Below, piece after piece: positions 6,253-49,169 of a stretch of DNA of 64,000 bases. Source of the DNA: a virus. Within the stretch, counting starts at the first letter, position 1, and every line of letters begins with the position of its first letter. The stretch spans positions 96,001 through 160,000 of the IMG/VR virus record IMGVR_UViG_3300024054_000008; one strand, written 5' to 3'. Under the pieces are notes generated by a model that saw only the letters and a list, made by a program, of their open reading frames with translations, was not told where the DNA came from and did not search any database. The position numbers were made by a program, and so were the translations under genes.

Positions 6253-6326
6253 CCAGGGTTAGCTCAGTCGGCAGAGCTGGGGATTCTAGATCCCTGAAAG
6301 CGCGGGTTCGAACCCCGCACCCTGGG
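6253..6326 (+). tRNA. tRNA with CUA anticodon (amber suppressor type); amino acid identity unknown; CCA not encoded
   Basis: acceptor CCAGGGT/ACCCTGG, D arm GCTC/GAGC, anticodon arm GGGGA-TTCTAGA-TCCCT, T arm GCGGG-TTCGAAC-CCCGC, G73. Confidence 0.85.
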
Positions 6327-6366
6327 CTATTTTGAAAATACATTTTATTTTATTGTAATATAATTT

Positions 6367-9028: not shown

Positions 9029-9742
9029 CTATTCAATTGAATTACTATTAATAGTTTGTTCAGGAACTCCGAACCCAAATACATAAGAAACTACCTTTTC
9101 GACCTGATAATGCAAACATGGTACGTCAAAATTATTGTCTATGATGAAATTGAATTCAGAGTCAGGTATTGTCGATTGCTCAATTTCAGATCTATGATCA
9201 AATGGTGGTTTTTGTATTGAAGGTCTCTTGATTCTAATTAAGACCGGAATAAATTTATCAGATTTAAATACCAACGGGCGCTTTATGTCATGCCAGTGTC
9301 TAAAGTCAGAAAAAACAGTTATTACTGGAGAACTTATTGGGTAACAAATGTTTTCTTGACTAGAAATTAAACCAACTATCTTTGAATAACTGTATTTAAA
9401 TACATAATCGTCTTTAAATATATCAACATCGGCTATGTCCATTGCAATTGATAGACCTTTGTCAATCCAAGTATATGAATACATGTCTTGCATAATCCTC
9501 ATATACTCCTGTAGAATATGCCTTGGTGTTAGTCCGTACCTTGAGTCTAATTTGTTTCTGTTCTCAGACGGGCCAAACATTTGATCAACTGTAAATTGAT
9601 ATAAATCCATCACGTGACGTTTTGCTACGTCTGCCAATCCTATGTGGATGGCATTATGTTTTTCAACCAAAGGTTTTACACATTCATCTTTGCCAACTCC
9701 GGAATAACCAGAAAAGGCAAACATGTAATGTTTTGGAATCAT
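9029..9742 (-). CDS. deoxynucleoside monophosphate kinase
   Basis: FSGYSGVGKD P-loop, GLADVAK, TPRHILQ and SDFRH motifs typical of T4 gp1-like kinases. Confidence 0.75.
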   Translation of the reverse strand: MIPKHYMFAFSGYSGVGKDECVKPLVEKHNAIHIGLADVAKRHVMDLYQFTVDQMFGPSENRNKLDSRYGLTPRHILQEYMRIMQDMYSYTWIDKGLSIAMDIADVDIFKDDYVFKYSYSKIVGLISSQENICYPISSPVITVFSDFRHWHDIKRPLVFKSDKFIPVLIRIKRPSIQKPPFDHRSEIEQSTIPDSEFNFIIDNNFDVPCLHYQVEKVVSYVFGFGVPEQTINSNSIE

Positions 9743-34641: not shown

Positions 34642-35124
34642 TTTTAAAGTTGGTCTCATATCATGAAGTTGGAGATTCGTTTATTGCATCTCTATCCAAT
34701 ACTATGAGTCTTTGAGTGATTTTTGAATTTATTTGATTTACTTTAATGAAAATTTGTTCAGTATGTTTAGAACCCAAAAGAAGAAAAAAGAACGTGGGGA
34801 TCGGACCACCCACTTCGCGTCCGGAGAACCTGTCTCTCCTGCACGCATGCGGTTTCTCCTATAAAAAGGATTACATCGAGATCTACTCCATTTACCCTAT
34901 ACTATATGCCATATACTATCCCCCATACTATCTAATACATACCATCTAGTGCCATTTCCCGGTGTTTCACGTGGAACGCTGACGCACCGCGTCATTTCGG
35001 AAATCCGGGCGGGTCCGGCGTATCTGGTTTTGGGCGCGACGCGGCGAGCGGCGCGGCGCCCGCCGGGATGGGCCCGGCGGAGATCGCGCGGCTCGCGGCG
35101 TATCGCCTCTCGGAGGTTGAGACA

Positions 35125-38107: not shown

Positions 38108-38207
38108 CTCCGGCGCTCGGTACGGCCGAGCCGTGCTAGCTTCCGGTCAAGGAGGGGCCCCGGGAAGGAGAAGATGGGCCTCTCCTTCCCGGGGCTTTGT
38201 TGCGCGG

Positions 38208-38555
38208 TCACGAACCAGGGCAGTGCAGGTACACTCCCTGGAAGGTCTTGAGGTTTTCCGGGTCTCCGGTGAACCCGATGACCCGGTACTCACCGTCCTT
38301 GCACGGAGCGGGGGTCTTCTTGGTCTTGACGACCGGCTTGGCCATCTTACCCACGATGCGAACCTCGGGAAGCTCCACGACCACTTCGGAGGCCACGACG
38401 ATGGGTTTCGCCTTCGGCAGGGCAGGAAGGCTGGCGAGCTGAGCCGGCTTGGGGCTCGTGAAGGCCATCGGGTTGGCCTGCATGTAGACGGCCGTTCCTG
38501 CCAGGGCGGTGGCCGGGATGAGAAGCAGAACCGATGCGATCAACTTTCCGTTCAT
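38208..38555 (-). CDS. exported or membrane-anchored hypothetical protein
   Basis: signal-peptide-like N-terminus MNGKLIASVLLLIPATALA. Confidence 0.55.
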   Translation of the reverse strand: MNGKLIASVLLLIPATALAGTAVYMQANPMAFTSPKPAQLASLPALPKAKPIVVASEVVVELPEVRIVGKMAKPVVKTKKTPAPCKDGEYRVIGFTGDPENLKTFQGVYLHCPGS

Positions 38556-38616: not shown

Positions 38617-38894
38617 CCGCGAGCTGGCTCACTCTTCGGAAACCGAGATCCGGAACCGCCGGACCTTTCCCTTGTGCCACTTACCGTGGCCGTCCTGCAC
38701 CCAGGACGTCATCGTGACGGTCCCGTCCTTCAGGGTCCTCCCATCCCACTCGACACCTCCCTCAGTGAGGAGCCAGTCCCCGCGCGCCTCACACATCTCT
38801 CGGACAATCCCAGCCCTAATCTGCGACGCAAGCTTCATGACGCGTACCTCCGCCAGCTGGCACGTCAGCCGTTTGGTTGTTTTCGGTTGGCGGG

Positions 38895-39487: not shown

Positions 39488-39726
39488 TGGCGGCCGACGC
39501 CCGACTCTCCCACGGAGCGTTCCACGGGTTAGGTTGCCCGCAGTCAGCTTTTCGCTTTCGCTTTATGCTAACTGCCTTTTACCGCTGGCCGGCCCCATCA
39601 AAACTGGATGCTTTTGTGGTCTTGGACACCGCAACGATCCGTCCTTGTGGTCAGACGAGCCAGGCACGGCCAAAGATTACGTCTTCGTCAACTTGCGCAC
39701 AACCTCCAATGTCCGATACGTCGGCC
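39488..39726 (-). ncRNA. candidate structured ncRNA of unknown class ending in GCCA
   Basis: closing stem GGCCGACG/CGTCGGCC-G-CCA; 9-bp GCAGTTAGC/GCTGACTGC hairpin containing GC-GAAA-GC; AGGTTG/CAACCT pairing; no credible ORF on this strand. Confidence 0.5.
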
Positions 39727-40046
39727 GTTTGGTTGTTTTCGGTGGACGAGACAGTTTGTCTGACCTGCGACACTTTCATGACTACACTGGCCAACCTACT
39801 TCATCGAGAAAATCAGTTTTTTCTTGATTATCTGTCCTCAGACTTTCTTCAACATCGGCTTCATGTTCGATTGGCAGGTCGAGAAGTTTGAGGCAAACAA
39901 AAGCCCTGGCAGCTGCTCTCATGTGGAATTCGTCTGGGTCACCCTTTGGGCCACCTGTCGCATCAAGAATGAGCAGATTCAACATCTTACCAACATCACG
40001 GGCAGTCACATTGTCGTGTTTCACACTATGCTCCTATGACTGCGCT

Positions 40047-40151: not shown

Positions 40152-40348
40152 GGACAGAAGATTTTACGCTCAGGAAGGTTCGACTTCCTCGATACTGAGT
40201 GTCTCACCTTTGACCCAAATGACATCTGGCAGGGCCCCTGTTTGTCCCTTCTCTACCAGACAAATCTCATACGCTACGCAGTCCACTTCACGAATATTCA
40301 AATCATCGGGAACGTTGGCTTCAAATTTCACAACTACGCGAACATGTT

Positions 40349-40675: not shown

Positions 40676-40887
40676 TCACCTGAGCATTTTGAATTGCACT
40701 CCATCCCGCAATACCGGTGCCAATCAGTTTCGCAAGTTTCCTTCACGCAAGTGTCGAAACACTCAGCTTCGAGCTGTTCCTGCGTCTTGGGTGGTGGCGT
40801 ATATTCCCAAAATATGGCAACAGGTTTGGGCGCTGGCTGCCTAGCGCAACCAACGCCCAAAACTGCTGCGAAGAGAAGACGCTTCAT
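40672..40887 (-). CDS. small Cys-rich lipoprotein
   Basis: MKRLLFAAVLGVGC lipobox-like N-terminus; six further Cys. Confidence 0.55.
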   Translation of the reverse strand: MKRLLFAAVLGVGCARQPAPKPVAIFWEYTPPPKTQEQLEAECFDTCVKETCETDWHRYCGMECNSKCSGE

Positions 40888-41317
40888 CGGTTCGTCAACA
40901 GGTCGTGCAGAGCCTCGCCTGCCGCTACGCGCTTCTCAGCTTCAGTTACGAAGCTTGAGCATTTCCCAGGTTGACCCGGATACGGGTCGGTTTTGAACCG
41001 ACCCTTCCGGTCGCGCTTGCTCACTTCAGCATCCCATTTGCAACGGTCGTCGGCAGACTCGATCTCTGCACGACAACCGTAACAGCAACCAGTGCCGCTG
41101 TGGTGGGAAGCTTCGTTGTGTCCGCAAGCGCAGATCACTTTTCACCAAGCGCAGCGCATTCCTGGCCCGGTCTCGTTGAGTTGACTGCGATAGCAGTCCA
41201 CGAGCGTTCCAGCGGGCTCACCCCACGGCGAGCCCCTAGTGAGACGGACGGTAACGTGGTCGTTTTGCGGGTCGTTTGCGAAATACGCGACCCTGACCAC
41301 AATGCCGTCGTACACTT

Positions 41318-43197: not shown

Positions 43198-43875
43198 TTA
43201 CAACTCACCCAATTGACGGACGAGCTGTTCTTTCAAGAGCTTCTTTTTAAATCCGGGTCGCTTCTTCTCTAGCATTGGAAGAAGTTCGTTGCGAACCCAA
43301 ACCCGTAGGTATTTTGGATCACTATTGGATGGGTCTGTGGCATATGGCACAGACCATCGCTTCAGATATCGCATGATTTCTTCACGCGTGACATTGAGCA
43401 AAGGCCGGAAAACCGGAATTTCGTTCACCGGTGTGTGAAGCCGTCTAATTGTTTTCAGATTTCCTTCTCGGATAAGCCCGATGAGAAGATTCTCTGCCTT
43501 GTCATCTTCAGTGTGCGCGGTAACAATTACCGCGTGAGAAAGGCCTCGGGCCGCGGTTCTCAACGCTTCGTAACGGGCCTCACGCGCACGTGCCTGCAAG
43601 TTCGGACCTTTGGCAACTTTGATTTTCACGCGACGGAACGGAACACCAATTGACTTGGCCAAGTTCTCGGCCAAGTCAAGCTCCTCGTTAGCTTCAGGTC
43701 GCAAACCATGATTGACACCAACGGCAATACATCTAGATGGTCCAACAATATGTGGTATAGATTTGAGCAAACACTGAGAATCAGGACCGCCACTAACCGC
43801 AAGCACGAAAGTCTGGTGCTTTAGTTCCCAAGGCAATGCTAGAAGCGCATCTTTGATTTTGTTATTGATGCTCAT
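43198..43875 (-). CDS. tilS: tRNA(Ile)-lysidine synthetase, minimal form with the catalytic domain only
   Basis: AVSGGPDS PP-loop, VNHGLR, REARYEAL, AHTEDD, RPLL and DPSN...LRVWVR. Confidence 0.9.
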   Translation of the reverse strand: MSINNKIKDALLALPWELKHQTFVLAVSGGPDSQCLLKSIPHIVGPSRCIAVGVNHGLRPEANEELDLAENLAKSIGVPFRRVKIKVAKGPNLQARAREARYEALRTAARGLSHAVIVTAHTEDDKAENLLIGLIREGNLKTIRRLHTPVNEIPVFRPLLNVTREEIMRYLKRWSVPYATDPSNSDPKYLRVWVRNELLPMLEKKRPGFKKKLLKEQLVRQLGEL

Positions 43876-43877
43876 TA

Positions 43878-44300
43878 TCAGTCCACAATGAGACTCCAAG
43901 CGATGACCTGTTCGTCATCTGGAGTCGTCACAACTTCGATCCTGAAGTTGTCGCCAAATTCGTTGTTTGGAACGAACCTACGCAACCAACATCTTTCGGC
44001 TTGTTTGGTATCTGACGCAGTTTTCTTGAGCAAATCATCGTCGCACCAACCGGCAACGTCAGTGAGCCAGCCAAACTCAACCGGTTGGTTATTCTTGTAA
44101 TCGTACTTTGTACAAAGAAGACCTGGCCATTCTTCCTTGAGGCGCTCTTTGCTTTCACGCTTCCACTGTTTGGTGTCACACCAATCATCCCAATGAATGA
44201 CTGTGTTTTCGACGAACGCGCTGTTCAAATAGTTTTTGATTTCGGGCGTGTTGATCCACCCAGCCATCAACTCACGAAGTTTCTCAGTCGAGAGTTTCAT
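43878..44300 (-). CDS. hypothetical protein
   Basis: ORF track. Confidence 0.5.
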   Translation of the reverse strand: MKLSTEKLRELMAGWINTPEIKNYLNSAFVENTVIHWDDWCDTKQWKRESKERLKEEWPGLLCTKYDYKNNQPVEFGWLTDVAGWCDDDLLKKTASDTKQAERCWLRRFVPNNEFGDNFRIEVVTTPDDEQVIAWSLIVD

Positions 44301-46772: not shown

Positions 46773-47459
46773 TTAAGAATCTTTTTTATCTTTGACTATC
46801 TTATCCAGTGCTTCATTTTCAGTTTCTGACAAGAATTTGCGAACTTCGCTCAAATCAGGTTTCGATTTGAGCCAAATACTCAAAATGTCCGGAGCGTCTT
46901 TTGCTTCGCGGCTTGGATTGTTTACCAAGGCCTGGACTTTGAGCCCAATCAGCGCGGCTGCTGAAACTACCGGGACTTTATGCCCGAGAACCATGTGCTC
47001 TTCAGCTGTTGACAATGCCAATTGTTTGAGTGGGTCAGTTGCGGTCAACAATTCGACTTGGCCGTTCTTTCGATGGTCGATAGTCAGGACTGTCCCAGTG
47101 CTTGATTTTGCTTTGTAAAAAGCAAATTTTTCCATGTATCGTGGGTCGCTGAGTTTGTCAGACGGTGGCAACTCTGAGACCAGAACGTCAATGTCGTCGG
47201 TGTTACGGATTACGCCATGAATAATCAATGCAACAGCGCCAATAACAGCAAAATCAATTTGATTGTCCTTCAAAAGATTTGACAAACCAGACATCACAGA
47301 TGATTCTGGGACTGAACCATGTAAAGAACGACCACGAAGTTCGTGCACAGCTTCAATGATTTCGTCAGCTTCTTTTTCGTGTCCATAGTCGTCAGCAATC
47401 TTGTGAGCAATCCGCACAAGGTTTTGCATCAACTCTGAGCTGTTTCTGAATTCAGTCAC
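46773..47459 (-). CDS. nucleotidyltransferase (AbiEii/DUF6036-like fold) embedded in the tRNA array
   Basis: FAVIGAVAL...RNTDDIDVLV (GG-like...DxD), LIGLK and KDAPDI motifs. Confidence 0.7.
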   Translation of the reverse strand: MTEFRNSSELMQNLVRIAHKIADDYGHEKEADEIIEAVHELRGRSLHGSVPESSVMSGLSNLLKDNQIDFAVIGAVALIIHGVIRNTDDIDVLVSELPPSDKLSDPRYMEKFAFYKAKSSTGTVLTIDHRKNGQVELLTATDPLKQLALSTAEEHMVLGHKVPVVSAAALIGLKVQALVNNPSREAKDAPDILSIWLKSKPDLSEVRKFLSETENEALDKIVKDKKDS

Positions 47460-47639: not shown

Positions 47640-48494
47640 TCATTTTATTTTGTAATTCTTATATTTTACGTTCGTGGTTATGGTCTTTTGATTTTTAACT
47701 TCTGAAAATGGAATCAACCACATATCCTCATTAAAACTCACAAGACAAACAAAATCGCATTCAGAATCAGCATACTTAATTCGTCGAACACCTTTTGTGT
47801 TAGTCCTAACCCTTTGAATGGAGAAAACAAAGTGGCCTTTTGGTTTGTGTGTTGATGTTTTGATTTGCACTTTTTTAAAATCACCAATAACTGGTGACGA
47901 AACCAACAAATCGAATGACGACCCTAACTCCGGTGAGAGAACTGTTGCACCACTTAGTATAAATATGTATTTAACATAATATTCAGCAGCTTTCCTGAAA
48001 AGCTGATGGTCTTTATTAAGATCATAACTGTGTTGCAACTTTGGCAATAAATGGAAATTTTTATCGCGTTTCAAACCGAGTTTCCTAAATCTTTTGAAAA
48101 CTGAAGCCTGATGCTTTACTCCGAGTTTTGAGGCTATTAACCTCGCACCCAAACCAGTTTCCCACAATTTCTTTATTTCTGAGTCTAATTCTCTTGGTCG
48201 GCCCTGAGGGACTTGAACCCTCACGCCTTTCGGCGAAGGATTTTCTTCACCACTTTGACTTTCGTCAACCACCGATTGGTGTTGTGGTCCGGACTGTATC
48301 ATCGCCCTCGTCTTTACGTTAGGGCGCCCCGAGCGCGAGTCTCTGAACCTTCCCCCGTTCTGGGGGCTCGGCTGCTGATTGCCCAATCCGACTTGTTTTT
48401 TGCCTTCACGCTTCCCGTTCCCAGGTACGTTGTGGCCAGGTCGGCTATTAGGGGTTTCCAGCAATTTCCGGGGTTCCATTCTGTGGTTTCTCAC
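47640..48494 (-). CDS. HTH plus PD-(D/E)XK homing endonuclease (I-Ssp6803I-like); start codon uncertain because the frame extends through the tRNA-Leu exon and intron
   Basis: FDLLV...KKVQIKTS and Y...CDFV motifs; N-terminal HTH LGARLIASKLG. Confidence 0.7.
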   Translation of the reverse strand: MRNHRMEPRKLLETPNSRPGHNVPGNGKREGKKQVGLGNQQPSPQNGGRFRDSRSGRPNVKTRAMIQSGPQHQSVVDESQSGEENPSPKGVRVQVPQGRPRELDSEIKKLWETGLGARLIASKLGVKHQASVFKRFRKLGLKRDKNFHLLPKLQHSYDLNKDHQLFRKAAEYYVKYIFILSGATVLSPELGSSFDLLVSSPVIGDFKKVQIKTSTHKPKGHFVFSIQRVRTNTKGVRRIKYADSECDFVCLVSFNEDMWLIPFSEVKNQKTITTNVKYKNYKIK

Positions 48495-48545
48495 AGACGG
48501 TTCAATTTGTTAAATCCTCTGCGTCTGCCATTCCGCCAAGGGCCG
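48195..48545 (-). tRNA. tRNA-Leu(TAA) interrupted by a group I intron; CCA encoded
   Basis: 5' exon 48545-48512 and 3' exon 48244-48195 reconstitute the loop TTTAAAA; acceptor CGGCCCT/AGGGCCG. Confidence 0.85.
48245..48511 (-). mobile_element. group I intron (267 nt) between tRNA positions 34 and 35
   Basis: core elements AAATTGCTGGAAAC, AATCAGCAGC, TTCAGAGACT and GATACAGTCC; terminal G. Confidence 0.85.
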
Positions 48546-48792: not shown

Positions 48793-48854
48793 GCGCAACC
48801 TCCAACCGTCGGTACACGCCAGACGACCAGAGCTGCGTTGATTAGATCATCTTG

Positions 48855-49169
48855 TGGGAGATCTGGGGTTCGAACCCAGGACCTTAGGATTACCTACCGC
48901 ACCGTCTTTCAACGGCTGCTTTTGCATTGCGGTCTGGACCATATCATCACCTTCGACTTCACGTTAAGGTGTCTCGCGTATGGCCTCTGAGGACTCTCTC
49001 CATTCGGAGGTTGCCTGCTGATTGCCCACGTATCTCAAAGATTGTTACGTCTTCACGTACTTTGAGCTTTAGGGTGTTCCAGCATACAGCGAGATTTTCT
49101 GGCTTCGTATTTCTACGAAGTGATTCCATTTTGAAAATCCTCTGCTCTAACCGGCTGAGCTAATCTCCC
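48855..49169 (-). tRNA. tRNA-Lys(TTT) interrupted by a group I intron; Thr(TGT) is the alternative splice reading
   Basis: GGGAGAT/ATCTCCC acceptor, Lys-like body with G2-C71 and A73; exons TTTT and TAA give loop TTTTTAA. Confidence 0.75.
48893..49133 (-). mobile_element. group I intron (about 241 nt), probably between positions 35 and 36
   Basis: P1 GATTTT/GGAATC with U-G pair; core GTATGCTGGAAC, AATCAGCAGG, CTCAGAGGCCATA and GATATGGTCC. Confidence 0.8.

Follow-up and report, generated by a model that had tools for sequence, protein, structure and literature searches.

Within the tRNA cluster of bacteriophage T4 lie rnaC and rnaD, two genes whose role is unknown (PMC3014915) and whose expression has been demonstrated (PMC9697503). 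Their products, RnaC and RnaD, are the species 1 and 2 RNAs, entered as T4s001 and T4s002 in NC_000866.4. GOLLD and ROOL, also phage noncoding RNAs, are found near tRNA islands and are likewise of unknown function (PMC12286853). What CCA-type small RNAs do in phage tRNA clusters has been a question ever since T4 RnaC and RnaD. The locus described here lies in a 64,000-nucleotide stretch of viral DNA (the window), which belongs to a linear virus record of 182.7 kb (G000, ∼43% complete); all coordinates are window positions. We consider it fairly probable that 39671–39488 on the minus strand is the gene of a discrete, stable, nondecoding RNA of 184 nt with tRNA-like maturation. Such an RNA should not decode, because ARAGORN and Rfam detect no cloverleaf, T loop, or anticodon arm in the element.

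The phage and its tRNA cluster

This is an uncultured jumbo phage and, judging from gene relationships, probably has a host among the Polyangiales (Myxococcota). Its RecA-like protein groups it with uncultured phages of 360 to 440 kb (57–70% identity). The probable host follows from TilS, whose nearest named bacterial relatives are Labilithrix and Polyangiaceae, and from the phage tRNA-Val, which is 96 to 97% identical to the closest Polyangiales tRNA-Val genes and has the first trailer bases in common with them. In one Logan contig (L028:1–128), non-phage GC-rich DNA is joined upstream to position 2 of the phage tRNA-Val, and other assemblies of that region break within the tRNA; the join is probably a chimera through the near-identical host tRNA-Val, or may be a host–phage junction.

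Nine tRNAs form a minus-strand cluster, with the element at its distal end; two of the nine carry group I introns. The split tRNAs (48195–48545 and 48854–49169, minus strand) are interrupted by introns devoid of ORFs, and an endonuclease-like ORF follows the Leu tRNA in this group I intron tRNA region. An encoded CCA is found in tRNA-Leu only and is absent from the other eight minus-strand tRNAs, and no PolyA_pol-family CCA-adding enzyme was detected in the ∼43% complete record. A short TilS and an AbiEii/DUF6036-like nucleotidyltransferase (43198–43899 and 46773–47459, minus strand) are encoded in or near this largely CCA-less cluster, and a tRNA with a CUA anticodon (an amber suppressor or Pyl call) lies at a distance from it, at 6253–6327 on the plus strand. 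tRNA-Val(UAC) (39432–39359, minus strand, no encoded CCA) begins 55 nt downstream of the element on the same strand, as an initial annotation of this DNA had noted. No minus-strand ORF of at least 40 amino acids covers the element.

Bounds and fold of the candidate RNA

The proposed mature RNA (39671–39488, minus strand) comprises a terminal helix, a five-helix multibranch loop, and a G-CCA end, as delimited by folding and by conservation in a second strain, L108. The 5′ strand of the terminal helix H1 (15 nt, 39671–39657), which is preceded by a U-rich leader, pairs with the 3′ strand at 39507–39492 as 10 bp, a bulged U, and 5 bp, with pair probabilities of 0.93 to 1.0 in 184-nt folds of both strains. 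The discriminator G and encoded CCA (39491–39488) are retained in both. H2 (39650–39595) is a long irregular hairpin with a 7-nt loop, and its domain holds both copies of GACCACAA (39652–39645 and 39621–39614). It is the sole poorly determined part of the fold, with alternatives within 1.6 kcal/mol in the window strain and the long hairpin favored in L108 (P ∼0.65). H3 (39593–39581) is a 4-bp hairpin (P ∼0.75), and H4 (39575–39540) consists of a 9-bp stem (P ∼1.0 in both strains), an A-rich 5 × 5 internal loop, 2 bp, and a GAAA tetraloop. H5 (39539–39532), a marginal 2-bp hairpin with a GCAA tetraloop, appears in the minimum free energy (MFE) and centroid structures of L108 and is missing from the MFE structure of the window strain. 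H6 (39528–39509; 8 bp, P 0.72–0.9) ends one base before the 3′ strand of H1, in the position of a T arm, and has no T loop. The nested GAAA hairpin, the GCAA hairpin, and the repeated GACCACAA had all been picked out correctly in the initial annotation.

That annotation had proposed an RNA of ∼240 nt, closed by other partners. The 3′ heptamer followed by G-CCA is present at 39498–39488 and is complementary to 39726–39720, as had been claimed. An internal GGCCGGC, offered as a second partner, also exists, 2 nt from where it had been placed (at 39594–39588), but in none of the context folds does the corresponding 107-nt closing rise above P ∼0. What had been missed is a third and stronger partner, 39671–39657 with 39507–39492. 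This duplex is predicted at −28.5 kcal/mol as compared to −22.0 kcal/mol for the 239-nt start, and is the strongest NCCA-adjacent terminal duplex across the 182.7-kb record; among ∼360 kb of DNA from relatives, a single NCCA duplex of −28.0 kcal/mol occurs, and it lies in coding sequence. The 184-nt closing has a probability of 1.0 in the long context of L108 and 0.73 in a 450-nt context of the window strain. Because the 239-nt closing wins in one shorter context of the window strain (P 0.925), it is a real competitor, in that strain only.

Folding energy alone does not distinguish the element, because neighboring coding DNA folds as well or better. The folding z is −3.9 (window strain) and −4.0 (L108) for the 184 nt, −2.7 for the 239 nt, and −1.7 for a 105-nt form. 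Values of −4.1 or below occur in at least 15 of 279 windows between 37 and 50 kb, coding DNA included, an estimate that is noisy at 15 shuffles each, and coding DNA nearby reaches −5 to −7. Two minus-strand segments of coding and intergenic DNA with unusually long hairpins, 40700–41130 (z −6.9) and 38110–38330 (z −4.9), lie in an accessory region that is strongly self-complementary. Such neighbors lend weight to a rival explanation, in which the element is a decayed protein-coding cassette or neutral spacer that lost its start codon behind a duplicated leader, its fold being a by-product of hairpin-rich accessory DNA. We regard this explanation as rather unlikely.

A second tRNA-like RNA of ∼125 nt is predicted at 40171–40047 (minus strand), with a canonical T arm, a tmRNA-like 3′ end, and a partial Rfam match to tmRNA (E 5e-5); it lacks a tag frame. 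In L108 the body of this RNA shows 100% conservation (0 changes in 116, p = 0.0008). The L108 copy has an intact 6-bp acceptor-like helix and no CCA, and the window copy has ACCA and a disturbed helix.

Divergence between two strains

A metagenome scan yielded strain L108 (Ga0233425_10173473, ∼94% identical) as the single divergent homologue and nothing beyond it. Every further assembly of the locus carries the element without a change, giving two distinct sequences in total among those searched. Between L108 and the window strain, ORF92 differs at 11 of 121 positions, ORF80 at 14 of 239, the RNA at 3 of 184, the spacer at 3 of 55, and tRNA-Val at none of 73; the RNA changed less than the flanking ORFs (25/360; Fisher p = 0.004). 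Because the spacer, of equal length in both strains, diverged at about the background rate, this pattern is not that of one uniform recent recombination tract. By these substitution counts, the 184-nt unit is under strain-level purifying selection that is stronger than on the neighboring ORFs. A decayed cassette would be expected to change faster than intact ORFs, whereas the element diverged about four-fold slower.

The 5′ limit of this constraint coincides with the start of the predicted helix. In L108, positions 39720–39672 show a 7-nt deletion and many changes, with heavy divergence over the 30 nt directly upstream of 39671, and the two strains match again from just before that position. 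A constraint boundary at the start of a helix that stops exactly one base before the CCA is not what a decayed cassette would predict. One feature that had spoken for decay, a protein-like minus-strand frame with a single stop through the 5′ half of the element, is shifted by an insertion in L108. The sole substitution in a helix, T>C at 39504, converts G-U to G-C in the terminal helix and keeps the pairing; the other two are adjacent and both fall in H2. The initial annotation had named homologues and covariation as a check: one divergent strain was found, and the two sequences compared show no compensatory double change and one one-sided change. It had also allowed that plus-strand ORFs over the region might be the real genes. 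The plus-strand ORF of 134 amino acids is refuted by a frameshift that interrupts it in L108 after ∼52 codons, and a search of 12 related records gave no homologue of it.

A duplicated leader upstream of the element

The additional 55 nt at the 5′ end of the 239-nt form belong, from their similarity to other loci of the record, to a phage-wide gene leader and not to the RNA. Positions 39772–39697 are a copy of the tRNA-Val 3′ end and the leader following it (77.6% over 76 nt, local E 2.5e-10), and three such minus-strand copies (38901–38841, 39375–39315, and 39772–39697) make up a small cassette array. The copy before the element consists of a decayed tRNA-Val 3′ end (T arm and acceptor strand, 39772–39743), recognized by sequence similarity to tRNA-Val, and the duplicated gene leader (39742–39677), which contains a Shine-Dalgarno site (39707–39702) and a dead 7-codon mini-frame and lies outside the conserved unit. 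At this third cassette position L108 has an extra ORF of ∼45 amino acids and a 5′ fragment of tRNA-Val, and the window strain a 3′ fragment. Since the two fragments occupy one position, we infer an ancestral tandem duplication of tRNA-Val and leader that would have decayed differently in each strain, with the element in the cassette position behind it.

The leader core and its Shine-Dalgarno site occur in 20 copies in the record, arranged as a 7-nt motif, 4 nt, and an extended Shine-Dalgarno site (e.g., at 35099, 38581, 48816, 50354, and 58408), and in 19 of the 20 a start codon follows 4 to 8 nt later. The element's copy is the only one that has no usable start, opening instead onto the 7-codon frame. 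This observation favors the decayed cassette, as does the lack of homologues of the element elsewhere in the collections searched. The phage-wide leader, which relative G015 has as well, may serve as an enhancer of translation or as a binding site for a protein.

Because the 5′ heptamer and AGGTTG, both initially read as RNA structure, lie in leader and Shine-Dalgarno sequence shared with two paralogous copies, they are no evidence of RNA structure. We consider it very improbable that the RNA has 239 nt or that it switches between folds of 239 and 107 nt (or of 239 and 184 nt, with coupling to the Shine-Dalgarno site). The 239-nt closing is the MFE structure of the 239-nt sequence in both strains and dominates the one window-strain context, and its 9-nt 5′ strand is unchanged in L108. 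However, that strand is leader shared with a paralogue at 38870 that lacks such a partner, the deletion and many changes in L108 fall between it and 39671, the 107-nt closing of the initially proposed switch is never populated, and the Shine-Dalgarno site has no gene to control. Taking folds and strain comparison together, the best unit is 184 nt (39671–39488, minus strand) and not 239 or 107 nt.

Searches for homologues

Rfam, both at the gathering threshold and at E ≤ 10, returned no match to the element, in keeping with the initial view that it lacks a T loop and the signatures of RNase P, SRP, tmRNA, and introns; Rfam does detect two true group I introns in the window. A covariance model (R1) found no homologue in 23 RecA-related phage records or their tRNA regions, nor in TilS-related contigs or 151 Polyangiaceae genomes. 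Since this model was built from two near-identical sequences and is weak, these negatives mean “not found” and not “absent.” Exact-pattern scans of viral contigs for the hairpin, junction, and repeat motifs gave chance matches only, mostly in apparent coding DNA, and BLAST of phage and plasmid collections likewise gave chance matches only. A pattern scan of GTDB gave none, and a scan of relatives for NCCA-closed helices and for H4-like motifs gave no analogue. On these searches the putative RNA appears uncatalogued and so far confined to two strains of one uncultured phage, which limits its value as an example.

Structured elements of other kinds were seen in related phages. One related jumbo phage (L128:1465–1720; G006 ∼114750–115000) has two small structured non-tRNA elements between tRNAs, of which one has a UUCG-hairpin word in common with the window element at 40171–40047 and the other a GGAA hairpin reminiscent of SRP helix 8. 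Another (L191:12640–14860) encodes Ro60/TROVE, Ku, and a ligase beside TilS, with three repeated structured elements before Ro60 and a very long inverted repeat after it; at ∼9390–9710 the same contig has a tRNA containing a group I intron.

Proposed maturation and function

A tRNA-processed phage noncoding RNA, as suggested initially, stands as the best reading in view of purifying selection, a structure-preserving substitution, and no Rfam match. The element would be cotranscribed on the minus strand in the order ORF80, RNA, tRNA-Val, ORF139. In bacteria, RNase P recognizes a 3′ RCCA by pairing with it, and 4.5S and phage RNAs are among its substrates (PMC4264200). Processing of this sort, in which host RNase P would cut at G+1 by way of the terminal helix and RCCA, is consistent with the element's U-rich leader, G+1, and G-CCA. 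A further RNase P cut, at tRNA-Val, would free a 55-nt trailer, which exonucleases could trim back to the encoded CCA.

The position 55 nt before tRNA-Val, on the same strand and at equal spacing in both strains, would also suit a role in cis, within the tRNA-Val precursor or the polycistronic mRNA, where the structure would act as a processing signal, a nuclease barrier, or an attenuator and not as a free RNA. We judge this improbable, given that the unit is self-closed with a G-CCA end typical of an excised product, that no such leader precedes other tRNAs of the cluster or host tRNA-Val genes, and that Rfam yields no HDV-like/theta or T-box match.

If the free RNA exists, it may be a protected mimic of a tRNA end that titrates host proteins recognizing acceptor ends or a tRNA-like shape, candidates being tRNA-targeting defense nucleases or toxins and 3′-end enzymes, with the GNRA and A-rich hairpins as a scaffold for tertiary or protein contacts. 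This decoy function is put forward tentatively, with weak confidence that falls short of even. A bolder version, which we think has little chance of being right, would make it a phage RNA of a new class, marked by an acceptor-like helix extended to 15 bp, G-CCA, and no T loop, which is aminoacylated or CCA-cycled and which myxobacterial tRNA-targeting defense meets as a decoy. In H2, the loop of 7 nt has the sequence U-CCA-A, resembling the anticodon loop of tRNA-Trp, a match not unlikely by chance, and the discriminator is G, as it is in bacterial tRNA-Trp; TrpRS may recognize the RNA. The RNA lends itself to synthesis in vitro and to assays of aminoacylation or with RNase P and CCA enzymes.

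Comparison with known RNAs

The element shares with the tRNA-like domain of tmRNA (RF00023) a helix of 5′ and 3′ termini, an NCCA after it, and a hairpin immediately ahead of the 3′ strand. It differs from tmRNA in having no T loop, G3-U70 pair, A discriminator, tag frame, or Rfam match. Related phages carry true tmRNAs, and these show no similarity to the element above shuffles. A two-piece tmRNA formed with the upstream T-arm element was considered and rejected: that element contains both strands of its own long helix, and the 184-nt RNA has no matching acceptor strand. GOLLD and ROOL are several hundred to >800 nt long, pseudoknotted, and widespread, whereas the element is 184 nt, known from two strains, and without an Rfam match. 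With 4.5S SRP RNA it has in common a long terminal helix and the potential to be a non-tRNA substrate of RNase P. The 5 × 5 loop, 2 bp, and GNRA loop of H4 presumably correspond to SRP helix-8 geometry, but the element lacks the conserved bases of the SRP motif, folds as a multibranched structure and not as a rod, and has no Rfam SRP match.

Divergent membership in a described class (a retron msr-msd, a TnpB omega-RNA end, a Y RNA, a group I intron remnant, or SRP RNA) is largely refuted and exceedingly unlikely. Besides the likeness of H4, one may point to a long terminal repeat like that of a retron, immediately followed by G, to H6, which we take to resemble an IS605 end hairpin, and to short words in common with the local group I introns. 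Against these, the ∼43% complete record contains no reverse transcriptase (PF00078), no TnpB (PF07282), and no Ro60, and none adjoins the element, whose neighboring genes are short ORFs without a family. By Rfam (E ≤ 10), the element lacks the permuted tRNA-like domain with T loop of a bacterial Y RNA (YrlA). Rfam finds no P3-P7 core of a group I intron, and the local intron similarity does not rise above shuffles (109/500 and 125/500).

The closest parallel is with T4. RnaC, RnaD, and the putative RNA of the element have non-tRNA structured RNA genes of 120 to 190 nt, situated within a phage tRNA cluster and on the tRNA strand, and all have tRNA-like 3′ ends (ACCA at the rnaD locus, G-CCA here). 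RnaC has a canonical T arm, which the element lacks; the element has a 15-bp terminal helix and a five-helix junction. The T4 RNAs have been shown to be expressed, whereas the RNA of the element is a prediction from sequence. Sequence similarity to rnaC and rnaD was not found (64/300 and 234/300 shuffles score as high). Two traits of the RnaC/RnaD kind are seen in the sequence, namely a noncoding, non-tRNA gene on the tRNA strand of the cluster, with a terminal helix and an NCCA-type end. The element is probably a phage small RNA of this kind, folded in a new way and not homologous to the T4 RNAs. Were such RNAs to include a well-bounded case that lacks a T loop, the terminal helix and CCA, and not the tRNA elbow, would be the feature that they share.
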